A stretch of DNA of 64,000 nucleotides from Candidatus Omnitrophota bacterium (GTDB taxonomy: Bacteria; Omnitrophota; Gorgyraeia; Gygaellales; Profunditerraquicolaceae), in contig CAINQO010000035.1 of the NCBI GenBank assembly GCA_903852325.1, positions 34,117 through 98,116 on the forward strand, given 5' to 3'. Within the stretch, counting starts at the first letter, position 1, and each line of letters begins with the position of its first letter. Shown here one piece after another: positions 2,656 through 53,719 of the stretch. Under the pieces are notes generated by a model. It did not search any database, was not told the origin of the DNA, and saw only the letters and a program-made list of their open reading frames with translations. The translations under genes and the position numbers were made by a program.

Positions 2656-4713
2656 ATGCCTAAAAATTTAGTGATTGTCGAATCGCCGACCAAAGCCAAA
2701 ACCATCAGCAAGATCCTCGGGGATGATTTCAGGGTAGTTTCCTCGATGGGGCACGTCATCGACCTGCCGGCGAAAAAACTCGGGGTCAATGTTGAGGATA
2801 ACTTTACCCCGGATTATGTGGTGATCCCGGGAAAAAAGAAGATCCTGGCCCAATTGAAAAAAGAAGCCAAAGGAAAAGAAAATATTTATATCGCGACTGA
2901 CCCTGACCGGGAGGGGGAAGCGATCGGCTGGCAGATAAAAGAAAAATTATTCAAGGGTAAAGAAGTCAAGCGGGTCAGTTTCCATGAGATCACCCCGCAC
3001 GCGGTGGCGGAATCTTTTAAAAACGCCAGGGAGTTCGACCTGGAAATGATCCAGGCCCAGGTCGGCCGCCGGGTGCTGGACCGGATGGTGGGTTATTTTC
3101 TGAGCCCTTTACTCTGGAAGAAGCTTGCCCGGGGATTAAGCGCCGGCAGGGTGCAGTCTGTGGGATTGAGGCTGATCGTGGAGAGGGAGCGGCAGATCCA
3201 GGTTTTTGTGCCCAGCGAATATTGGCAGATCGGCGCGGAATTATTCAAGCCCCAGGTGTCCGGGGAGAGCGGTTTTTCCGCGGAACTGGAGAAGATCGGC
3301 GGCGAGAAAGCGCAAATCAAAAACGGCGGCCAGGCCAAGGAGATCTGCGAATTTTTGCGGGATAAAGAATTTAAGGTTCAGGGAGTGAAGAAGTCGGAGA
3401 AGAAGCGTTACCCGCCCGCCCCGTTTATTACCAGCACGATGCAACAGGAAGCGTTCAATAAATTAAGGTTCAACGCCTCCAAAACCATGTTGATCGCCCA
3501 GCAGCTTTACGAAGGGATCGATATCGGCGAGGATAACCCGGTGGGTTTAATTACTTATATGCGTACGGATTCTCCGCATGTCGCCGCCGAAGCGATCCAG
3601 GAGGTGCGCGAGCATATCGGCAGAAGTTTCGGCAAGGATTTTGTCCCGGAGAAGCCCAATGTTTTTAAAGCGAAGAAATCCGCGCAGGAGGCGCACGAAG
3701 CGATCCGCCCCAGCTATGTCTCCCGGAGCCCGGAGAGCCTTAAGGATTTTCTCAATCACGACCAGATCCGGCTTTATACGTTGATCTACAACCGTTTTTT
3801 GGCCAGCCAGATGAAACCGGCGGAGTTCTTAGCGACGGCGGTAGACATCCTGGCGGATAAATATTTATTCGCGGCTAACGGCAGCCATTTGCTTTTTGAG
3901 GGTTTTCTCGCCGCTTACAATAAAGAGGAGGAGGGGGAGGAAAAAGACGAGGAAGAGGAAAAAGAAAAAGATAAGAATAAAAATGTAATTCCTCCTCTGG
4001 AGCAGGGTGAGGTGCTGGGCTTAAAGGGGTTGAATCCTTCGCAGCATTTTACCAAGCCTCCGCCCCGGTATTCGGACAGCTCTTTGATCAAGGCGCTGGA
4101 AGAAGAGGGGATCGGCAGGCCTTCAACCTACGCCCCGATCATTTATACGATCATTTTGCGCGATTATGTGCGCCGGATCAAAGGCTACCTTAATCCTTCC
4201 GAGCTGGGTTTTAAGGTCAATGACCTTTTAGTGGAATACTTCCCCAAGATCCTCGACTTGAAATTTACCGCCGCTATCGAGGAGCAGCTGGATGAGGTGG
4301 AGGAAGGTAAATTGAGCCGGATAAAAGTGCTGGAAGATTTTTACCAGCCGTTTAAGGAAAGCCTGGATTTTGCCCAGGCCAACATCGTCAAGGAAGTGAT
4401 CACTACGGACCAGGTATGCGATAAATGCGGCAAGCCCTTGATCGTGAAGTGGGGCAGGCGCGGAAAATTCTTGAGCTGTTCCGCTTTTCCGGAATGCAAG
4501 AACTCCAAATCGATTACCTCCGGGGTCAAATGCCCGCTGGAAAATTGCGGAGGTGAGCTAATCGAGCGGCGCTCAAAGCGCGGATTTTTCTACGGCTGCT
4601 CGAATTTCCCCAAGTGCACGTTTACTTCGCGTAATTTACCGGATGACAAGGATGAGGCGGAGAAAAAACCCGAAGCACAGCCTGAAGCTAAACCAGAGGA
4701 TAAACAAGAATAA
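2656..4713 (+). CDS. topA: DNA topoisomerase I
   Basis: TOPRIM N-terminus MPKNLVIVESPTKAKTISKILG. C-terminal Cys4 zinc ribbons (CDKCGKPL..., CPLENCGGEL...CSNFPKC). 685 aa. Confidence 0.95.
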   Translation: MPKNLVIVESPTKAKTISKILGDDFRVVSSMGHVIDLPAKKLGVNVEDNFTPDYVVIPGKKKILAQLKKEAKGKENIYIATDPDREGEAIGWQIKEKLFKGKEVKRVSFHEITPHAVAESFKNAREFDLEMIQAQVGRRVLDRMVGYFLSPLLWKKLARGLSAGRVQSVGLRLIVERERQIQVFVPSEYWQIGAELFKPQVSGESGFSAELEKIGGEKAQIKNGGQAKEICEFLRDKEFKVQGVKKSEKKRYPPAPFITSTMQQEAFNKLRFNASKTMLIAQQLYEGIDIGEDNPVGLITYMRTDSPHVAAEAIQEVREHIGRSFGKDFVPEKPNVFKAKKSAQEAHEAIRPSYVSRSPESLKDFLNHDQIRLYTLIYNRFLASQMKPAEFLATAVDILADKYLFAANGSHLLFEGFLAAYNKEEEGEEKDEEEEKEKDKNKNVIPPLEQGEVLGLKGLNPSQHFTKPPPRYSDSSLIKALEEEGIGRPSTYAPIIYTIILRDYVRRIKGYLNPSELGFKVNDLLVEYFPKILDLKFTAAIEEQLDEVEEGKLSRIKVLEDFYQPFKESLDFAQANIVKEVITTDQVCDKCGKPLIVKWGRRGKFLSCSAFPECKNSKSITSGVKCPLENCGGELIERRSKRGFFYGCSNFPKCTFTSRNLPDDKDEAEKKPEAQPEAKPEDKQE

Positions 4714-16754: not shown

Positions 16755-16819
16755 GCAATATACCTGGCGCTTAGTGGTATTGCGCCAGTACGCGCCACGT
16801 GGCGCGAGGGGCGGGATGA

Positions 16820-16894
16820 CCCCGCACCATCTTCTAATTCACGCTTTAAGTCCTAAGGTTTAATAACAATTAACTATAAGGATGGTGCGGGGTG
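16820..16894 (+). promoter_or_regulatory. Leader element copy A (anti-SD arm CCCCGCACCATCTTCT paired with SD/start arm AAGGATGGTGCGGGGTG) upstream of the GT4 gene
   Basis: The 5' arm at 16820..16835 is complementary to 16878..16894, which holds the RBS and the GTG start at 16892. An AT insertion is matched in both arms. The CGCGCCACGTGGCGCG palindrome lies upstream. Confidence 0.6.
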
Positions 16895-21315: not shown

Positions 21316-22245
21316 ATGATCAACTTAAAGAAGGTTAAAAGATATTCGCTTAAAGCCCGTTTAAGCAAGGTAAATAAGGGGGATTTTGCCCTTAAACCGG
21401 CTAAAGGCAGGAGTTTTTCCGTTTTTTTTGACTCCTTACCTAATATTTTAAAAGCCAAAGATTTACGCTCGGTTTCTGCCGATATTATCGCGGCGCGCCG
21501 GAAAAATAAAGGGGTGATTTTAATGGCCGGGGCCCACGTGATCAAGTGCGGGCTTAATCCGGTTTTGATCGAGTTGTTGGAAAAAAAAGTGATTACCTGT
21601 ATCTGCCTTAACGGGGCCGGATTGATCCACGATTTTGAGATCGCCTACCAGGGGAAGACTTCGGAAGATGTGGCCGCCAACCTCAAAGACGGGAAATTCG
21701 GGATGGGGATCGAGACCGCGGATTTTATCAACGCCGCGGTCAAAGAAGGGACTGAGGCGGGCTTTGGATTAGGTTATGCCTTAGCCAATAAAATGGCCGG
21801 GGCAGCTTTACCCAATAAAGATCTAAGCCTGATTTATAATGCCTATAAGCGTAAAATCCCGGTTTGTGTTTTTGCGGCGATCGGTACGGATATAATCCAT
21901 CAGCACCCTTCTTTCGACGCTGCGGCAACCGCCGTGGGCTCATTGCGGGATTTCCATATCCTGGTGGAGAGGATCCGCTCCTTGAATCAGGGGGGAGTGG
22001 TTTTAAATTTCGGCTCCGCGGTGCTTTTGCCTGAAGTATTTTTAAAGGCTTTGAACCTTGCCCGCAACCTGGGCAGCAAAGTGAAAGATTTTACTTCCGC
22101 TAATTTCGATATGATTTACCAGTACCGCGCGGCACAGAATGTAGTGAGCCGTCCCACCGCTTCCGGGGGTAAAGGCTATTATATTATCGGTCACCATGAG
22201 ATCATGCTGCCGCTTTTAGCCCAAAGTATATTGGAAAAAATCTGA
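21316..22245 (+). CDS. Deoxyhypusine synthase (DHS)-like NAD-binding family protein, function unknown, embedded in the LPS/heptose locus
   Basis: Three blocks follow the DHS pattern. AGAHVIKCGLNPVLIELLEKKVITCICLNGAGLIHDFE matches SN.ISSG.RE.I..L.....VDV.VTTAGGVEED. IPVCVFAAIGTDIIHQH matches IPVF.PA.TDGS.GD. LNQGGVVLNFGS matches GGGVVKHH. Start moved from the track's 21277 to the internal ATG at 21316 because 21277 overlaps the putative -35 box. Confidence 0.5.
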   Translation: MINLKKVKRYSLKARLSKVNKGDFALKPAKGRSFSVFFDSLPNILKAKDLRSVSADIIAARRKNKGVILMAGAHVIKCGLNPVLIELLEKKVITCICLNGAGLIHDFEIAYQGKTSEDVAANLKDGKFGMGIETADFINAAVKEGTEAGFGLGYALANKMAGAALPNKDLSLIYNAYKRKIPVCVFAAIGTDIIHQHPSFDAAATAVGSLRDFHILVERIRSLNQGGVVLNFGSAVLLPEVFLKALNLARNLGSKVKDFTSANFDMIYQYRAAQNVVSRPTASGGKGYYIIGHHEIMLPLLAQSILEKI

Positions 22246-22246
22246 C

Positions 22247-22317
22247 CCCGCACCTTCTTCGTATTCGATCTGAAGGTCAGGGGTAAAAAATAGTTAATAA
22301 TAGGAAGGTGCGGGGTG
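22247..22317 (+). promoter_or_regulatory. Leader element copy B (CCCCGCACCTTCTTC ... AGGAAGGTGCGGGGTG) upstream of hldE
   Basis: The 5' arm starts 2 nt after the upstream stop. An internal GAAGGTCAGGGG can alternatively pair with the anti-SD. The 3' arm supplies the SD and GTG start (22315). Confidence 0.6.
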
Positions 22318-27403: not shown

Positions 27404-28106
27404 GGGCCTGGCTAAATCCTATGACGGTCGCTGGGTGGTTAAGGGCGTGGATATCACGGTCAAGCGCGGGGAGATCGTCGGGCTTTTAGGCCCCAACGGA
27501 GCCGGCAAGACTACTACTTTTTATATGATCGTCGGGATCGTCCCCCCCAACAAGGGCACGATCGTTTTTGATAACCATGAAATCACCCGGATGGCGATCC
27601 ACGAGCGGGCGCGTTTCGGGATCGGCTATCTTGCCCAGGAACCCTCGATATTCCGGAAACTGACCGTGGAAGAAAATATCAACGCGATCCTGGAGACTTT
27701 GCCTTTGAGCCGCGCGCAGAGAAAAAACCGGCTGGCGTTTTTGCTGGAGGAGTTGAATATCGCGCACCTGGCAAAGCATAAAGCCTACACTTTAAGCGGC
27801 GGAGAGAGAAGGCGCCTGGAGATCACCCGGGCGCTGGTGACCAATCCTTCTTTTATCCTGCTGGATGAACCTTTCAGCGGGATCGACCCGATCGTCGTCA
27901 ATGAAGCGCAGGAGATCATTAAGGAATTAAAGGCCAAAGGCCTGGGTATTCTTTTGACCGACCATAATGTGCGGGAGACCCTGGCGATCACCGACCGGGC
28001 GTATTTAATTTCCGAAGGGGCGATCCTTATTTCCGGATCCGCGGAGGAGCTGATTAATCACCCTCAGGCCCGCCAGGTTTATTTAGGTGAGAAGTTTAGG
28101 ATGTAA
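27384..28106 (+). CDS. lptB: LPS export ABC transporter ATP-binding protein
   Basis: Walker [12 protein letters not shown], signature [11 protein letters not shown], Walker B ILLDEP. 240 aa. Confidence 0.9.
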
Positions 28107-28248
28107 CCCCGCACCTTCTTCTGTATTCGGAAGAAAAACGGATTGATTAAAGGCGCGGGACAATAATAACCATGGTCATTTCTTTAAACATCAAGGTTCA
28201 AAGCTTAGATGCAGGGAATGATATAATTAAGAAAGAAGGTGCGGGGTG
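28107..28248 (+). promoter_or_regulatory. Leader element copy C (CCCCGCACCTTCTTC ... AAGAAGGTGCGGGGTG) upstream of tig, with a 25-codon uORF
   Basis: The 5' arm begins at the first nt after the lptB TAA. The uORF at 28173..28250 ends with TGA overlapping the tig GTG (GGTGA). Confidence 0.6.
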
Positions 28249-29936: not shown

Positions 29937-31076
29937 ATGAAGAAAGAGTACTTATTGACCCCGGGTCCTACCCCTTTACCGCCGCAGGTCAGCCTGGCCA
30001 TGGCCAAACCGATCATTCATCATCGCACTCCGCAGTTCCAGGAGATCCTGAAGGAGGCCAGCGCCGGATTAAAATGGGCTTTCCAGACGGCTAACGACGT
30101 TTTTATTATTTCTGCATCGGGTACCGGAGCGATGGAAGCGGCGGTGGTCAATCTGCTTTCCTGCGGGGATGCCGCGTTAGTAGTCCAGGGCGGTAAATTC
30201 GGCGAAAGATGGACGGAGCTTTGCAAGGCTTACGGGATCAAGGCTGAGGTTGTTGACGTGGAATGGGGCAAAGCGGTCAGCCCGGAGGAGATTGCTAAAA
30301 GATTGAAAGCCAATCCGCAGATCAAGGCGGTATTTGCCACTTTATGCGAAACTTCCACCGGCGTGGACAATGATATCCAGGCGATTGCCGCCGTGGTCAA
30401 GCAGACTCCGGCAGTTTTAGCGGTGGACGCGATCAGCGGCCTGGGAGCGGTCGATCTTAAAACCGATGCCTGGGGGGTGGATGTGGTAGTGGCCGGTTCG
30501 CAGAAAGGCCTGATGCTTCCTCCGGGGCTAGGGTTTATTTCTTTAAGCGCCAAGGCCTGGAAATTGGTCGAGGAGTCCAAAACCGGCCGGTATTACCTTG
30601 ATTTGAGAAAAGCGAAAAAAGCCCTGGATAAAAATGATACGCCGTTTACTTCCGGGATCACCTTGATCATCGCTTTAAATGAAGCTTTAAAATTAATGCA
30701 GGCCGACGGCCTGGAAAACATATTTAAGCGCCACCGGGTAATGGCGGATGCCACCCGCGCCGCGGTTAAGGCTTTGGGGATGGAGCTGTTTGCCCCCACC
30801 GCTGCTTCTGACGGGGTTACCGCGGCTAAGGTGCCTGCCGGCCTTGACGGGGAAAAATTGGTCAAGACTATGCGGGATACTTACGGGGTAACCATTGCCG
30901 GCGGACAGGAAGAGCTTAAGGGCAAAGTCATCCGCATCGCGCATATGGGTTATATCGCCGAATCTGATATTATTTTAGGGATAACCTGCCTGGAAAAAGT
31001 CCTGGCCCAGATGGGCTATAAATTCAACTTAGGGGCAGGGGTCAAGGCAGCGGAAGAGGTATTTTTGAAGGGCTAA
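29937..31076 (+). CDS. Class V aminotransferase (AGXT/SPT family), probable phosphoserine aminotransferase
   Basis: LLTPGPTPLPPQV...ISASGTGAMEAAVVNLL...GSQKGLMLPPGLGF (PLP-Lys context). Directly upstream of serA. 379 aa. Confidence 0.75.
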   Translation: MKKEYLLTPGPTPLPPQVSLAMAKPIIHHRTPQFQEILKEASAGLKWAFQTANDVFIISASGTGAMEAAVVNLLSCGDAALVVQGGKFGERWTELCKAYGIKAEVVDVEWGKAVSPEEIAKRLKANPQIKAVFATLCETSTGVDNDIQAIAAVVKQTPAVLAVDAISGLGAVDLKTDAWGVDVVVAGSQKGLMLPPGLGFISLSAKAWKLVEESKTGRYYLDLRKAKKALDKNDTPFTSGITLIIALNEALKLMQADGLENIFKRHRVMADATRAAVKALGMELFAPTAASDGVTAAKVPAGLDGEKLVKTMRDTYGVTIAGGQEELKGKVIRIAHMGYIAESDIILGITCLEKVLAQMGYKFNLGAGVKAAEEVFLKG

Positions 31077-31091
31077 ATTTAGAGAAAGAGC

Positions 31092-31219
31092 AAATCCTAG
31101 GCACTAAATCCTAAACTCTAAACAAACTCAAAAAATTTAAACTCAAAACCCGAAACATGGGTTTGGAGTTTTGGATTTTGGATTTGTTTAGGATTTAGAG
31201 TTTAGTGTTTAGAGTTTAG
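31092..31219. repeat. Long imperfect hairpin built from inverted heptamer tandem repeats (CTAAAYN x3 ... NGTTTAG x4) between serC and serA
   Basis: The left arm CTAAATC CTAAACT CTAAACA AACTCAAAA...AAACCC and loop GAAACAT precede the right arm GGGTTTGGAGTTTTGGATTTTGGATTTGTTTAG GATTTAG AGTTTAG TGTTTAG AGTTTAG. The arms are A/C-rich versus G/T-rich. Confidence 0.5.
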
Positions 31220-31240
31220 AATAATAATGAGGGGTGAGAG

Positions 31241-32827
31241 ATGATCAAAGTTTTAGTCAGTGATGCGTTAAGCCAGGAAGGGCTCAAAATATTCAATGAT
31301 TGCAAAGAGCTTACCGTAGATGTCAAGACGGATTTAAAACCCGATGCGCTCAAAGAAATCATCAAGGATTATGACGCTTTGGTGGTCCGCAGTGCGACCA
31401 AGGTGACCAAGGAAATAATCCAGGCCGCCGAAAAACTAAAAGTGATCGGCCGGGCCGGAGTAGGTTTGGATAATGTGGATCTGGAAGCGGCGACCGCCAA
31501 AGGGATCATCGTTATGAACACCCCGGCGGGAAACACGATCTCTACCGCCGAACATACCTTCAGCATGATCCTGACCTTATCCCGGAATATCGCCCAGGCA
31601 AACGCCTCGATGAAGAAGGGGGAATGGAAACGTTCCAAATTCATGGGGGTGGAATTATACAATAAGGTTTTGGGGATCGTTGGGTTCGGCCGGATCGGTT
31701 CGGAGGTGGCTAAGCGCGCGCTTTCATTCGGAATGAAGGTGTTGGCGTATGACCCGTTTTTATCTGCCCAGGTTGCCGAGAGCATCGGGGTGGAGATTGC
31801 CGAATTGAAGAAGGTACTGCAGGAATCCGACTATATTACCGTGCACACTCCTTTAACCGAAGAAACCAGGCACATGATTTCGGATAAAGAATTCGCTTTA
31901 ATGAAAAAGAATGTGCGCATCGTCAATTGCGCCCGCGGCGGGATCATCGACGAACTGGCTTTAGTCAAAGCGGTTAAAGAAGGTAAGGTTTCCGGAGCGG
32001 CGATGGATGTTTTTGAAAATGAACCGCTGGCCGCCGACAGTGAACTTTTGAAGCTGGATAACGTGATTACTACTCCGCATCTAGGGGCTTCTACCGAAGA
32101 GGCGCAGATCAATGTCGCCATCGAAGTGGCGGAGATCGTGCGCGACGCGCTCCTGGGCCGGGGGATCCGTAACGCCGCCAATTATCCCTGCTTAGAAGCG
32201 GAGGTGTGCAAGATCCTTAATCCCTACATTAACCTGGCGGAAAAACTGGGGATGTTCAGCGCCCAGCTGGTTGAGGGCCGGTTCCAGGAATTAGTGATCA
32301 ACTATAGCGGACAGATCACTAAGTATGATTTAAGTTCGGTAACCATGGCCCTGGCCAAAGGACTGCTTACCCCGATATTAAAAGAGACGGTTAATTTCGT
32401 TAACGGCATCTCTTTGCTCAAAGAAAGAGGGATAAAGCTGCGCGAATCGAAATCCGCGGAAGAAGGAGAGTTCGTTAATCTTATTCAGTTGGAAATTAAG
32501 ACCGACAAAGAAAGCAAATCGGTTTGCGGGACCCTTTCCAGCAATAAGCAGCCCCGTATCGTAAAAATCGACGATTATTACCTGGAATTATACCCGATCG
32601 GAGAAATGGTGTTTATCCGGAATTGGGATAAGCCGGGACTGATCGGAAGCCTGGGGACATTCATGGGTAAGAACGGGATCAATATCGCCGCAATGACCTT
32701 CGGCCGGGATAAACCGGGCGGAAAGGCGATCAGCGTGTTGAACGTGGATAGCCTGGTCAGCCAGGAGATCCTGGACAAGATCAGGGAATTGGAAAATATC
32801 CTCACTGCTAAAATAATCCGGACGTGA
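31241..32827 (+). CDS. serA: D-3-phosphoglycerate dehydrogenase (long form with ASB and ACT domains)
   Basis: NAD-binding GIVGFGRIGSEVAKRA, catalytic ...CARGGIIDE...HLGASTEEAQ, C-terminal ACT domain. 528 aa. Confidence 0.9.
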   Translation: MIKVLVSDALSQEGLKIFNDCKELTVDVKTDLKPDALKEIIKDYDALVVRSATKVTKEIIQAAEKLKVIGRAGVGLDNVDLEAATAKGIIVMNTPAGNTISTAEHTFSMILTLSRNIAQANASMKKGEWKRSKFMGVELYNKVLGIVGFGRIGSEVAKRALSFGMKVLAYDPFLSAQVAESIGVEIAELKKVLQESDYITVHTPLTEETRHMISDKEFALMKKNVRIVNCARGGIIDELALVKAVKEGKVSGAAMDVFENEPLAADSELLKLDNVITTPHLGASTEEAQINVAIEVAEIVRDALLGRGIRNAANYPCLEAEVCKILNPYINLAEKLGMFSAQLVEGRFQELVINYSGQITKYDLSSVTMALAKGLLTPILKETVNFVNGISLLKERGIKLRESKSAEEGEFVNLIQLEIKTDKESKSVCGTLSSNKQPRIVKIDDYYLELYPIGEMVFIRNWDKPGLIGSLGTFMGKNGINIAAMTFGRDKPGGKAISVLNVDSLVSQEILDKIRELENILTAKIIRT

Positions 32828-35852: not shown

Positions 35853-37198
<1,346 letters not shown>

Positions 37199-48891: not shown

Positions 48892-50184
48892 ATGAGTCAG
48901 GAACTTTTGGCAATTATCGAACAGATTGAACGCGAAAAAGGAATTAAAAAAGAGATCATGCTTGAAGCCGTGGAAAGCGCGATGCTTTCCGCCGCAAAAA
49001 GGGTGATCGATTTAAAGCCGGATGAGGAATTTAAGGTGCAGATCGACCGGGTTACCGGAGAGATCCGCGCTTTCCGGAATAATGAGCCGGTGACCAATAT
49101 TGATTTCGGCAGGATCGCCGCTTCTACCGCGCGCCAGGTGATCATCCAGAAAATGCGGGAAGCGGAAAAGGATGTGGTTTTTATGGAATTTCAGGCCCGG
49201 GTCGGTGAAATTGTCAGCGGCACGGTGTACCGATTTGAAAAAGGGAATGTGATCGTGGATTTATTGGGCAAGGCTGAAGGGGTCCTTTTAAAACGGGAAC
49301 AATCCCCGAAGGAAGAATTTAAGCAGGGGCAGCGTATCCGCGCTTATGTGGTCGAAGTAAAAAAAGACACTAAGGGGCCGCAGATTATCCTCTCCCGGGC
49401 GCACCCAAATTTGGTTAAAGAGTTGTTCGAGCTGGAGGTTCCCGAGATCTATGAAGGGATCGTGGAGATTCGGGGGATTTCCCGTCAGGCCGGAGAGCGC
49501 ACCAAGATCTCCGTTTATTCCAAGAACGATAAGGTCGACGCGGTAGGGGCATGCGTGGGGATGCGCGGAAACCGGGTGCGCAATATCGTCAATGAATTGC
49601 AGGGAGAAAAGATCGATATCGTGCGTTTCAATGAAGATGTGCGTGAATATATCAAGGCGGCATTATCGCCGGCCAAGGTTTCGGAAATCAAGCTGGACCG
49701 GGATAAAATGAAGGCCGAAGTCGTCGTGGATGATGACCAGCTTTCTTTGAGCATCGGAAAACACGGCCAGAATGTTCGCCTGGCATCGCGCCTGGTCGGT
49801 TGGGAACTGGATATCCGCACCAAGAGTATGATCGCCGCGGAAGCGCTGGGCGGCACTGCGCCCGCTGCCGAAGCTGTTGCGGAAACAGGAGCGCCGGCCG
49901 GGGAAGAAGAAGCTAAGCCCAAGAAAGCAAAAAAAGCGGCTAAAAAATCCGCCAAGCCAGAGTCAAAAAAAGAAAGTAAAAAAGAAGCGAAAAAAGAAGA
50001 GGGCAAGGAAGCCTCTTTGGGGGAATCTCTGGGGGTAAGTGAAAAGATCGCCGAGAGCCTCAAAGCCTCCGGGGTTAAAAACGCCGCGGACGTGATTAAA
50101 TTGGGAGTGGAAGGGCTTACCCAAATCAAAGGGATCGGTGAAAAGAAGGCGGAAAAAATCATTGCGGAAGCAAAAAAATTGTAA
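48892..50184 (+). CDS. nusA: Transcription termination/antitermination factor NusA (with Lys-rich linker and C-terminal HhH)
   Basis: S1 and KH domains (GEIVSGTVYRFEKGNVIVDL, GMRGNRVRNIV). 430 aa. Confidence 0.95.
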   Translation: MSQELLAIIEQIEREKGIKKEIMLEAVESAMLSAAKRVIDLKPDEEFKVQIDRVTGEIRAFRNNEPVTNIDFGRIAASTARQVIIQKMREAEKDVVFMEFQARVGEIVSGTVYRFEKGNVIVDLLGKAEGVLLKREQSPKEEFKQGQRIRAYVVEVKKDTKGPQIILSRAHPNLVKELFELEVPEIYEGIVEIRGISRQAGERTKISVYSKNDKVDAVGACVGMRGNRVRNIVNELQGEKIDIVRFNEDVREYIKAALSPAKVSEIKLDRDKMKAEVVVDDDQLSLSIGKHGQNVRLASRLVGWELDIRTKSMIAAEALGGTAPAAEAVAETGAPAGEEEAKPKKAKKAAKKSAKPESKKESKKEAKKEEGKEASLGESLGVSEKIAESLKASGVKNAADVIKLGVEGLTQIKGIGEKKAEKIIAEAKKL

Positions 50185-50239
50185 TCGCTTTTATATAAAA
50201 TAAAGCTGCACTTTAAAGAGCGCAGAGAAAAGAGAAAAA

Positions 50240-52546
50240 ATGCCCAAAACAAAAAAAGAAAAACCCCCGGTAGAAAAAACAGCTAAACCTAAAAAAACCG
50301 CGGCCAAGGAAGCAGCTAAGCCTAAGGCGGTCAAAGCGGCCAAGCCTAAACCTTCCGCAGTAAGGGCGGTCAAGGAAAGTAAGCCAAGCCCGAAGCCGGT
50401 ATTTAAATCCATGCTTAAACCGGGGCCAAAGCCTGATTTTAGGCCCCTGGTTAAAACTCAGATTAAGCCGGTGGTAAAACCTGAAATCAAGCCGGAAATA
50501 AAGCACGAGGTTAAGCCGGCAATAAAACCCGAACTCAAACCCGAGCATAAGCCTGAAGTTAAGCATGAAATTAAGCATGAGGTAAAGCACGAAGCAAAGC
50601 ACGAAGCAAAGCACGAGGTGAAGCCTGAAATTAAACATGAGGTAAAACCGGAAACGAAATCTGATATAAAACCTGAGGTTAAAGTTGCGCATAAGCCGGA
50701 AGTTAAGGCTGAGCATAAGCCGGAAGTTAAGGTTAAAGTTTCGGCCCCGGTTCCGGTTGTTCCTGTCGAAGTTAAGGCTCCGGCGGCCCCAGAAAAAGAG
50801 ATTGAGCTGGAATTGCCGATTACCGTTAAAGATTTGGCCGTAAAATTGCAGGAAAAATCTTCAATCCTCATCAAGCACCTTATGGGGATGGGGATAATGG
50901 TGGGGATCAATCAGCCCCTGGACGAAGTTTCTTTAAATAAATTATGTTTAAAATATAATTTCAAAGTAAAAAAAGCGCTTAATGCCGAAGAGATAGTTTT
51001 GCAGGCGCACAGTAAAATAGACAAACCCCAGGATAAAAAGACCCGCGCTCCGATCGTCACCTTTATGGGGCATGTTGATCACGGTAAAACTTCTCTTTTG
51101 GATGCGATCCGTAATACTAAAGTAGCGGATAAAGAGCACGGAGGGATCACCCAGCATATCGGCGCCTACCGGGTGCAACTTCCCCAGGGGGAGATCACTT
51201 TCCTGGATACGCCGGGCCATGAAGCGTTTACCGCGATGCGCGCCCGCGGCGCCAGGATCACCGATATCGTGGTTTTAGTCGTCGCTGCGGATGACGGGAT
51301 TATGCCCCAGACGCAGGAAGCGATCGATCATGCCAAAGCCGCGCAGGTCGCGATCATTGTGGCGGTCAATAAAATCGATAAGGCGCAGGCAAATTTGGAT
51401 ATGGTCAAAAAACAGCTGGCCGCGGCCGGTTTAACTCCCGAGGATTGGGGAGGTAAAACCATTACCGTGCCGGTTTCGGCAAAGACCGGAGCGGGGATCG
51501 ATACCCTGCTGGAAATGATCCTGCTGCAGGCGGAAATGATGGAATTAAAGGCCAATCCTGACCGGTTGGCCAACGGAGTGGTAGTGGAAGCCAGGATGGC
51601 CAAAGGCCGGGGCCCGGTCGCCACCCTGCTTATCCAGAACGGAACTTTGCATCTTAATCAAAATATAATCGTCGGCAATCTTTACGGAAAGATCCGGGCG
51701 ATGCTTAATGACCGGGGGCAGGGAGTGACCGCGGTAGGGCCGGGAACTCCGGTAGAAATTTTAGGCATCAGCGGGATTCCTCAGGTAGGGGAGCAATTTT
51801 TCGCGATCGAAGATGAAAAGCAGGCCAAAGAATTGATCCAGGCGCGCCAGGAAAAAGAAAGGATCGCCCAGGTCAAGGAAGTAAAAAGGGTTAATCTGGA
51901 AGAGCTGCATGCCCAGATTGCCGCCGGTGAGATCAAGGAATTAAATTTGATTATCAAGGCCGATGTTCAGGGATCCCTGGAGGCGATTAAAGATACCCTG
52001 GAGAAATTGAATGTCTCTGAGATAAAGATCAATATCCTCCACATGGCTGCCGGCAACATCAATGCCTCCGACGTGATTTTAGCGGTAGCTTCCGATGCCC
52101 TGCTGGTGGGGTTCAACGTTTTATCCGATGAGCCGGCCAAGGAGCTGATCGCCAAAGAAAAGATCGAGGTAAAGATATACAACATTATTTATGAGCTGGC
52201 CAACGATATAAAAGCGGCGGTGGAAGGAATGCTTGACCCGAGGTTAAAGAAAATATTTTTGGGCCGGGCGGAAGTCAGGAAAATGTTCAAGCTTTCCCAT
52301 TCCGGAATTATCGCCGGCTGCATGATTACCAAGGGCAAGATCAACCGCCACTGCCAGGTTACCGTAATGCGTAACGGGGATGCGATTTTTGAAGGCAAAA
52401 TTTCCAGCCTCAAACGGTTTAAGGATGATGTCCGCGAGGTAGGGGAGGGTTTTGAATGCGGTATCGCCATCGGCGGTTTCGACCAATTAGCCGAAGGGGA
52501 TATCATTGAAGCCTACGATATCGAGAAAATAGCCAGGAAGCTGTAA
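50240..52546 (+). CDS. infB: Translation initiation factor IF-2 with a repetitive (KPEV/KHEV)n N-terminal region
   Basis: G-domain [25 protein letters not shown]. 768 aa. Residues about 75-165 are tetrapeptide repeats. Confidence 0.95.
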
Positions 52547-53550: not shown

Positions 53551-53719
53551 AGGAAGGGCGGGATGAACCCTGCATTTTCTTGTTATTCAATATTAAAGTC
53601 TTAGGAATTTGATGATTAAACAGAAGGAAGGTGCGGGGGTGAATCCCGCTCCTTCTAATTGTTCAATGCTAAAACCCATACGTTTTAAAGAATTCAATAA
53701 GAAAGAAGGAGCGGGATGA
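53550..53719 (+). promoter_or_regulatory. Tandem (degenerate plus intact) leader element copies E1/E2 upstream of scpA, each with a uORF
   Basis: Pseudo-start AAGGAAGGGCGGGATGAA (53550..53567), then uORF1 MNPAFSCYSILKS (53563..53604). Second pseudo-start AGAAGGAAGGTGCGGGGGTGAA, anti-SD TCCCGCTCCTTCT (53644..53656) and uORF2 MNPAPSNCSMLKPIRFKEFNKKEGAG (53639..53719). Real SD AGAAGGAGCGGGA (53704..53716), exactly complementary to the anti-SD with two compensatory changes relative to the consensus. Confidence 0.6.

Follow-up and report, generated by a model that had tools for sequence, protein, structure and literature searches.

A hairpin of inverted heptamer arrays between an aminotransferase gene and serA in an Omnitrophota genome is probably an ORF-less member of a dispersed element family with a PF05635 gene

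Results

The stretch of DNA analyzed here (the window, 64,000 nt of contig CAINQO010000035.1 from a Candidatus Omnitrophota bacterium) carries, at positions 31092-31217, a hairpin built from inverted tandem heptamers, which lies between a gene for a class-V aminotransferase and serA. The upstream gene (29937-31076, + strand) was taken from the list of open reading frames (ORFs) and encodes an Aminotran_5 protein of 379 aa whose NCBIfam matches are all below their cut-offs. The downstream gene, serA (31241-32827, + strand), encodes a D-3-phosphoglycerate dehydrogenase (PGDH) of 528 aa and matches TIGR01327 with 685.7 bits against a cut-off of 454. By exact sequence matches, this protein belongs to metagenome-assembled genomes of Candidatus Omnitrophota. 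An earlier reading of this DNA from its letters alone (the sequence-only reading) had named the pair serC-serA; the second name was confirmed, whereas the upstream gene stays below every NCBIfam SerC cut-off, and serC is here a label for a functional guess. The serA stop codon overlaps the start of the next gene, indicating an operon-like arrangement. The serA start codon (ATG, 31241-31243, + strand) and its ribosome-binding site (RBS; GAGGGG, 31229-31234, + strand) are both unpaired in the minimum free energy (MFE) structure of the region.

The letters of the hairpin match their first description. The A/C-rich 5′ arm (31092-31151, + strand) was delimited by sequence, folding, Tandem Repeats Finder, and alignments, and it reads CTAAATC CTAAACT CTAAACA at 31104-31124, followed by units of the AAACTCA/AAACCC type. 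The terminal loop GAAACAT (31152-31158, + strand) was taken from the MFE structure, and comparison with ORF-bearing copies of the same family (described below) places the ORF of full-length elements at this position. The G/T-rich 3′ arm (31159 to 31217 or 31222, + strand) consists of ~9 period-7 units (TTTNNNN), as seen by sequence, folding, Tandem Repeats Finder, alignment A3, and nhmmer. Its inner part (31162-31185, + strand) is made of TTTGGAT-type units and its outer part (31186-31219, + strand) of GTTTAGG ATTTAGA GTTTAGT GTTTAGA GTTTAG; Tandem Repeats Finder reported 3.3 copies of a period-7 unit at 31162-31185 and 5.0 copies at 31186-31220. The 18-mer that forms the family core, TTTAGGATTTAGAGTTTA, occupies 31188-31205 (+ strand) within this arm. 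The G+C content of the hairpin is 31%. Whichever strand is read, all three frames meet a TAA in the CTAAAYN heptamers of the 5′ arm or a TAG in the NRTTTAG heptamers of the 3′ arm, so that an insertion of this kind ends any incoming reading frame within 21 nt.

As RNA of the + strand, the region folded into a single hairpin of ~53 pairs at −49.1 kcal/mol (z = −5.5), and none of 200 shuffled sequences folded as well. The − strand RNA gave −44.7 kcal/mol (z = −7.9), and the DNA gave −25.2 kcal/mol (z = −5.4). Allowing at most one mismatch, the motif GTTTAGNGTTTAG occurs six times in the 64-kb window, always within the hairpin, against 0.16 occurrences expected. The long hairpin of inverted heptamer arrays that the sequence-only reading had described between the two genes is therefore borne out by sequence, folding z-scores, and period 7. 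Its position was slightly misjudged: the hairpin had been set 20 nt before the serA RBS, but the stem ends 6-11 nt before GAGGGG and 18-23 nt before the serA ATG, so 20 nt fits the distance to the start codon instead.

The junction was compared among 80 related loci from a metagenome scan (72-96% serA identity), 76 of which keep the aminotransferase-serA pair. The spacer between the two genes in these 76 relatives has a median of ~13 nt and is often 0-20 nt, versus 164 nt in the window, and most of the relatives have no hairpin in it. L126 and L127 (95 and 94% serA identity, respectively) have spacers of 11-13 nt; L125 (96%) carries a 72-nt one-armed array of other heptamers (CTTACNN) in the spacer; and L129 (91%) has a GTTTAG-type arm at the same junction as the window, its contig beginning inside the arm. 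The short and mostly hairpin-free spacers show that the window hairpin is an insertion and not a conserved leader. It is a recent one, present in some relatives and absent from others. Empty sites in relatives read ...TTTCTAAAATAAGGAG...ATG. Compared with them, the left junction GGCTAAATTTAGAGAAAGAGC (31071-31091, + strand) contains one additional codon (Gly) before the TAA of the aminotransferase, whose C terminus is ...FLKG* where most relatives have ...FLK*; the stop triplets in the heptamers may be the reason for this ending. The left junction may be a degenerate outer 5′ arm of the element with an uncertain boundary, and the match to the family profile begins at 31089, just inside it.

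Other hairpins were seen at the same junction. L173, L192, L193, and L168 carry unrelated ones, some of them made of short repeats (AGCTNNN, AGGTAAA/ACCTNT); other relatives have G+C-rich hairpins of the GCGCCAGTGT type (the listing covers L147, L153, L156, L157, and L181); and L186 has a three-hairpin insert of 204 nt. Hairpins seem to insert preferentially at the aminotransferase-serA junction.

The presence and absence data bear directly on regulation of serA. A conserved cis-regulatory leader, serving attenuation, processing, or stability and perhaps read by a heptad-binding protein, would agree with a strong hairpin just upstream of an unpaired serA RBS, and also with the five (UAG-N4) repeats visible at 31189-31219 in the 3′ arm, which we take to resemble a HutP-type site. 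However, most relatives that share the gene pair lack the hairpin, the same sequence family precedes unrelated genes in unrelated phyla, a scan of 800 nt found no terminator-like site, and Rfam gave no match at gathering thresholds in the whole window. We therefore regard a conserved serA leader as very improbable, and the proposal of the sequence-only reading that the hairpin is an attenuator or processing determinant of serine biosynthesis, which had been tied to its presence in close relatives with the same gene arrangement, did not hold up against the 76 relatives and the lack of a terminator-like site in the scan. An intrinsic terminator or attenuator was also rejected on the low G+C content, together with the two points just named. 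Two points led us to drop the HutP-type reading of (UAG-N4)n: members of this family stand before unrelated genes in many phyla, and the heptamers of other families have different sequences. A permissive Rfam scan returned plant miRNA-precursor matches at 45 bits against a cut-off of 90, which reflect generic hairpin resemblance.

The hairpin belongs to a dispersed repeat family. A search with an nhmmer profile based on alignment A1 (18 copies) gave a single match in the window, at 31089-31222 (E = 6e-34). Among the relatives, the profile matched homologous copies between tig and clpP in L146, L155, and L165 and further copies in L189 and L188, in both of which the − strand match is the stronger. 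Family copies in relatives accordingly lie at other intergenic sites and in both orientations. The consensus is AAACnCTAAACnCGAAATCCTAAACTCTAAACAAACTCAAAAC ... TTTTGAGTTTTGGATTTTGGGTTTGTTTAGGATTTAGAGTTTAGTGTTTAGAGTTTAA, the termini TAAACTCTAAAC and GTTTAGAGTTTA are perfect inverted repeats (alignment A1), and the element ends have the form 5′ (CTAAAYN)n ... (NRTTTAG)n 3′. In L155 (~630-655), the heptamer element is itself interrupted in its 3′ arm by a G+C-rich mini-hairpin, CCTGCCTGCCGGTAGGCAGG, so that one insertion sits inside another.

Beyond these relatives, the core 18-mer occurs at no fewer than 118 loci in contigs representing one genome per species, where we estimate a chance expectation of ~17 (2 × 596 Gb / 4^18, uniform composition). 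The hosts among the matches listed are Omnitrophota, Patescibacteria, Planctomycetota, Chloroflexota, Bacteroidota, Desulfobacterota, Saganbacteria, gammaproteobacterial metagenome-assembled genomes (MAGs), and one Methanophagales archaeon; the Omnitrophota matches include the complete genome of Ca. Velamenicoccus archaeovorus. Of 123 occurrences of the 18-mer, 64 score as two-armed hairpins built like that of the window (arms <200 nt apart, arm-alignment score ≥30), and the others are single arms, ORF-bearing copies, or coding coincidences. Several genomes give two to four loci each among the listed matches, for example JAPLLZ01 (L241, L244, and two in L275) and CAKKRH01 (L231, L261, and L278). 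About half of the 14 viral contigs with the 18-mer also hold the element; a loose pattern of four TTTAGNN units was discarded for viral contigs as too unspecific (>120 matches) in favor of the 18-mer core. Assemblies end inside a heptamer arm in Logan contigs L002 (1-40) and L004 (1-40) and in L129 (1-20), L271, L284, and L287, which is consistent with a multi-copy repeat or a variable heptamer number breaking de Bruijn graphs. At 32 copies with co-oriented neighbors, the upstream reading frame terminates a median of 0.5 nt from the 5′ arm, and a median of 21.5 nt separates the 3′ arm from the start codon that follows.

Eight copies (L316, L223, L242, L285, L248, L249, L320, and L246) are full length, that is, they consist of a 5′ arm, an ORF, and a 3′ arm. 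The full-length members contain a single gene of 116-126 aa between the arms, which belongs to PF05635/TIGR02436 (23S rRNA intervening-sequence/four helix bundle protein). In L316, the 5′ arm runs into the start codon of a 119-aa ORF (PF05635, E = 9e-12; TIGR02436, E = 6e-17) and the 3′ arm follows directly after its stop; the L223 copy comes from an Omnitrophota MAG, and the ORF of the L246 copy is interrupted. The solved structure nearest to the L316 product is the five-chain entry 2RLD. Homologues of the L316-type protein number at least 7,997; the best 120 of these are all ≥80% identical and mostly on short contigs, two of them on one 92-kb contig.

Traces of this gene remain in shorter copies. 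The ORF-less L235 and L296 keep the ATG and ~11 codons, and in the window the inner 5′ arm (31125-31151) corresponds by homology to the opening codons of the four-helix-bundle gene in full-length elements, its ATG being lost (alignment A2 with L223, L316, L246, and L242; alignment A1). The 5′ half of the window copy aligns with the arm and the ORF start and the 3′ half with the ORF end and the arm (alignments A2 and A3), so the short hairpins are most simply read as internal-deletion derivatives. The window copy has the 7-nt loop in place of the ORF, no four-helix-bundle ORF exists anywhere in the window, and both arms are homologous to those of ORF-bearing copies (alignments A1, A2, and A3, and the nhmmer match). 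These results suggest that the window hairpin is very probably an ORF-less member of a family of heptamer-arm elements with a PF05635 ORF.

Local events could also generate such a structure. Replication slippage would expand heptamers and template switching would make palindromes, independently at each site and without any mobility. Consistent with this, the unrelated hairpins of L173, L192, L193, and L168 show that different repeat units occur at the same junction; short-period tracts in the window and the 80 loci number 51, and 40 of them, spread over 29 of the 81 sequences, have period 7, with a unit that differs by group. By a crude definition of ORFs, ~2% of the sequence falls outside long ORFs, and this fraction contains half of the period-7 tracts. 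Heptamer copy number differs among Coxiella strains (PMC4990558), and polymerase slippage has been proposed for heptamer excess (PMC4692102). Against this, the whole ~135 nt can be aligned between copies from different sites and phyla, including the non-repetitive inner part and the ORF remnants, for which slippage alone would not suffice. A purely local origin is thus unlikely in our judgment; slippage probably remodels the arms after insertion.

We then asked how general heptamer arms are around four-helix-bundle genes, using an independent sample of eight plasmid genes selected by protein similarity alone (from Nostoc, Pseudanabaena, Chondrinema, Bernardetia, Anabaena, Chlorohelix, Planktothrix, and Treponema). 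Period 7 was the strongest in all 16 flanks (0.61-0.93, where the 95th percentile of shuffles was 0.57). The upstream and downstream arrays are inverted to each other, and their units are specific to each gene family: TTCAAAA; CAGTNAA/TAACTGA-like; GTAAAAA; GAAGGAT; AATCCCC and AATCGTA; and GGTGAAA/CCGCTCT. The Planktothrix and Nostoc genes are flanked by AATCCCC and TTCAAAA arrays, respectively, and the Chondrinema gene by TCAGTTA/TAACTGA-type units; AATCCCC is presumably the STRR1 unit (STRR, short tandemly repeated repetitive sequence). The plasmid genes sit between coupled operon genes, namely resistance-nodulation-division (RND) adaptor and permease, helicase and DNA methylase, or cas2 and cas1 (examples from L325, L328, L329, and L327, plasmids of Chondrinema, Chlorohelix, Planktothrix, and Anabaena). 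The position between cas2 and cas1 agrees with the published note of 23S_rRNA_IVP genes inside cas operons (PMC3936711).

The hairpin could be a binding array for the pentameric four-helix-bundle protein of full-length copies elsewhere in the genome, a site regulated in trans that would influence serA translation or stability. The ORF is always found together with the arms, the heptamer units are particular to each protein subfamily, the nearest solved structure has five chains, and PMC4990558 cites a description of the Xanthomonas homologue as a homopentamer. Common descent alone may explain why arms and ORF go together, and the 64-kb window has no four-helix-bundle gene; we consider a binding array for serA unlikely. 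The same protein is an obvious candidate for the heptad-binding protein that the sequence-only reading had invoked.

Two further repeats were noticed in the window. A second, unrelated hairpin family has near-perfect 13-15-bp inverted repeats, ACCCCGCACCTTCTT ... AAGAAGGTGCGGGGT, around 30-110 nt of A+T-rich variable sequence; five copies lie at 16819-16893, 22245-22316, 28106-28247, 35857-35931, and 53627-53717, the motif has 13 matches against 2.0 expected in 64 kb, and the copies fold at −30 to −50 kcal/mol. At 49966-50734, tandem repeats with periods of 12, 24, and 48 nt (AAAAAAGAAGCG, TAAGCCGGAAGT, and similar) lie in an apparently coding stretch with a strong A-skew.

Discussion

In this study, we found that the hairpin between the aminotransferase gene and serA is a recent insertion, and we propose a course of events that starts from a full-length element. 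The element gene would have been lost in the window copy, leaving two arms joined by a 7-nt loop, and the element would have inserted at the aminotransferase stop codon, in a spacer that is ~13 nt long in relatives. Because the two genes lie 0-20 nt apart in relatives, they are surely co-transcribed, and the hairpin would be part of the aminotransferase-serA operon RNA. This RNA is predicted to form a double-stranded stem of ~50 bp in which the serA RBS takes no part, and the unpaired RBS would explain why the insertion is tolerated. RNase III may then cut the stem, a step that we put forward with reserve and by analogy with the Coxiella rRNA intervening sequence. Such a cut would uncouple the two cistrons and leave stem-capped ends, and serine synthesis would be affected only incidentally, by a selfish insertion that is tolerated, and not through an evolved control. 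The suggestion of the sequence-only reading that the stem is an RNase III substrate is plausible in this light, with the in vitro cleavage of the Coxiella intervening sequence as its precedent (PMC4990558).

An outward-facing promoter supplied by the element is another way in which serA could be affected. A sigma-70-like site, TTTAGA-17-TAGAAT, lies at 31194-31222 (+ strand) inside the 3′ arm, faces serA, and agrees with the consensus at 9 of 12 positions. The match is weak, however: the 800 nt scanned hold three such sites against 1.0 ± 1.0 expected, the implied transcription start falls on the RBS, and the short gene distances in relatives imply co-transcription. The site was scored against a sigma-70-like consensus, from which the consensus of Omnitrophota may differ. 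Promoter function is extremely unlikely on these grounds.

More broadly, heptamer arrays could be the cis-acting ends of an unrecognized class of small mobile elements whose sole gene encodes a pentameric PF05635 protein. In this tentative scheme, which we regard as possible but doubtful, the protein would recognize its cognate heptamer array and mediate spread or RNA processing. The scheme would unite rRNA intervening sequences, STRR, the TAACTGA, GGGAATC, and Geobacter arrays, and the intergenic heptamer excess, and it would also take in the ORF-less hairpins across operons of Omnitrophota, candidate phyla radiation (CPR) bacteria, Planctomycetota, and others. A literature link between PF05635 proteins and heptamer arrays was found only in the Coxiella paper (PMC4990558), most subscription journals being outside the search.

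A number of observations weigh against an element family of this kind, or against parts of the proposed course of events. The four-helix-bundle protein is not among the known transposases or nucleases that could explain mobility. Neither a recognizable target-site duplication nor a sharp insertion boundary could be defined by comparing filled with empty sites, where repeats blur the boundaries. The 64-kb window has only one copy of the element and no four-helix-bundle gene, so no autonomous copy is present there. The genome scan was based on the exact 18-mer, which makes the core invariant by construction, and the 18-mer can encode LGFRV, giving coding coincidences (for example, L291, L299, L313, and L332). 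RNase III cleavage and an effect on serA are proposed by analogy. Arm-against-arm alignments showed no clear excess of G.U pairs over A.C mismatches (112 versus 90), orientation relative to co-directional neighbors showed no significant bias (27 same, 16 opposite), and covariation was weak, with compensatory changes in 2 of 23 pairs (RNAalifold; the core was fixed by how the sequences were found). The absence of a G.U excess and of an orientation bias and the scarcity of covariation together give no sign of RNA-level selection. A comparison of MFE values between strands (63 versus 18 in favor of the + strand) was confounded by sloppy boundaries and was not relied upon.

As an ORF-less copy of the PF05635 element family, the hairpin would not be a riboregulator of the serine pathway, and as a recent insertion it may incidentally split or stabilize the operon transcript. 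In every case checked, that is, all eight plasmid genes and the eight full-length copies, the four-helix-bundle gene lies inside inverted 7-nt arrays, and ORF-less derivatives of one such family occur across many phyla with nearly identical arms of ~60 nt. If the wider scheme is true, STRR, several "regulatory" heptamer arrays, and rRNA intervening sequences would have a common origin, and a very large protein family of unknown function (≥7,997 homologues in one subfamily) would gain its first functional context. STRR sequences have been used in cyanobacterial fingerprinting since 1990. In practice, heptamer elements fragment metagenome assemblies, and a search for riboswitches, small RNAs, or miRNA-like hairpins can pick them up in error.

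Miniature inverted-repeat transposable elements (MITEs) and REPINs (hairpin-forming doublets of repetitive extragenic palindromic, REP, sequences) resemble the family in being short and ORF-less, with several copies per genome, inverted ends, and presence or absence among close relatives, and in deriving from a longer ORF-bearing element by internal deletion. In contrast to them, the family has tandem heptamers as arms instead of unique terminal repeats, and the parent ORF, the sole one of full-length copies, is PF05635/TIGR02436 and not a transposase or a REP-associated tyrosine transposase (RAYT); filled and empty sites showed no clear target-site duplication at boundaries that the repeats blur. 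The Avd protein of diversity-generating retroelements is a pentameric four-helix-bundle nucleic-acid binder. At the protein level, it is a relative of the full-length element ORF, PF05635 being mentioned in a review of these retroelements (PMC10053308). Unlike these retroelements, the heptamer elements have no reverse transcriptase, template repeat, or variable repeat beside them, and the window copy encodes no protein.

The 23S rRNA intervening sequences of Coxiella burnetii and Leptospira (PMC4990558) share several properties with the element and its family: terminal inverted repeats that form a long stem, heptamers adjoining the ORF, a PF05635 ORF (in the full-length relatives of the window element), and decay or deletion of that ORF; they are regarded as selfish. 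The Coxiella intervening sequence carries the ORF S23p, a 28-bp terminal stem that RNase III cuts in vitro, and tandem repeats of the heptamer GACAGAT, in numbers that differ from strain to strain; a mobile-element origin has been proposed for it (PMC4990558). The window copy differs from it in lying in an mRNA spacer between protein genes instead of helix 45 of 23S rRNA, in having no ORF, in its heptamers (CTAAAYN/NRTTTAG, not GACAGAT), and in its arms, which are ~60 nt of repeats and not a 28-bp stem. By the strict criterion of insertion in a 23S rRNA helix, the hairpin is not an intervening sequence, and the Rfam scan of the whole 64 kb found no rRNA. Separately, L127 has, just past serA (4091-4179), a (CAGATGT)n array followed by (TTCTGTC)n, the two only partly complementary; CAGATGT is one base off a rotation of the Coxiella GACAGAT.

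The sequence-only reading had held that inverted tandem heptamers are not a standard bacterial motif, but they are known from cyanobacterial STRR (PMC2670836) and from Xanthomonas and Nostoc heptamers (PMC4692102). Heptameric repeats are over-represented in the intergenic DNA of Xanthomonas (GGGAATC) and Nostoc (PMC4692102), TAACTGA arrays directly precede start codons in Beggiatoaceae, Cyanobacteria, and Bacteroidetes (PMC4679880), and Geobacter metallireducens has heptanucleotide "regulator sites" (PMC2700814). Like our family, these arrays are tandem heptamers in intergenic DNA, often just before start codons and sometimes in inverted pairs, and their patchy distribution across phyla suggests horizontal transfer. 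They differ in their units and in having been read as regulator-binding, G-quadruplex, or translational sites, with no associated ORF mentioned.

A close parallel in position is STRR, whose 7-bp repeats fold into hairpins in the spacers of co-transcribed genes, hupS and hupL being one example (PMC2670836); GGGGATT repeats likewise lie between pecE and pecF (PMC4692102). STRR and the window hairpin have in common the 7-bp tandem units, the capacity to form a hairpin, and the location between co-transcribed genes, and transcript stability or translational coupling has been proposed as the STRR function. The window differs in its host, which belongs to the Omnitrophota and not the cyanobacteria, and in its units, which are CTAAAYN/NRTTTAG and not those of STRR1-3; the STRR papers (PMC2670836 and PMC4692102) make no link to a four-helix-bundle ORF. 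The AATCCCC and TTCAAAA arrays at the Planktothrix and Nostoc four-helix-bundle genes suggest that STRR arrays are the same kind of element. The window hairpin joins the known heptamer hairpins of the intervening-sequence and STRR types, and there is possibly a so far unrecognized unity between four-helix-bundle genes and bacterial heptamer repeats.

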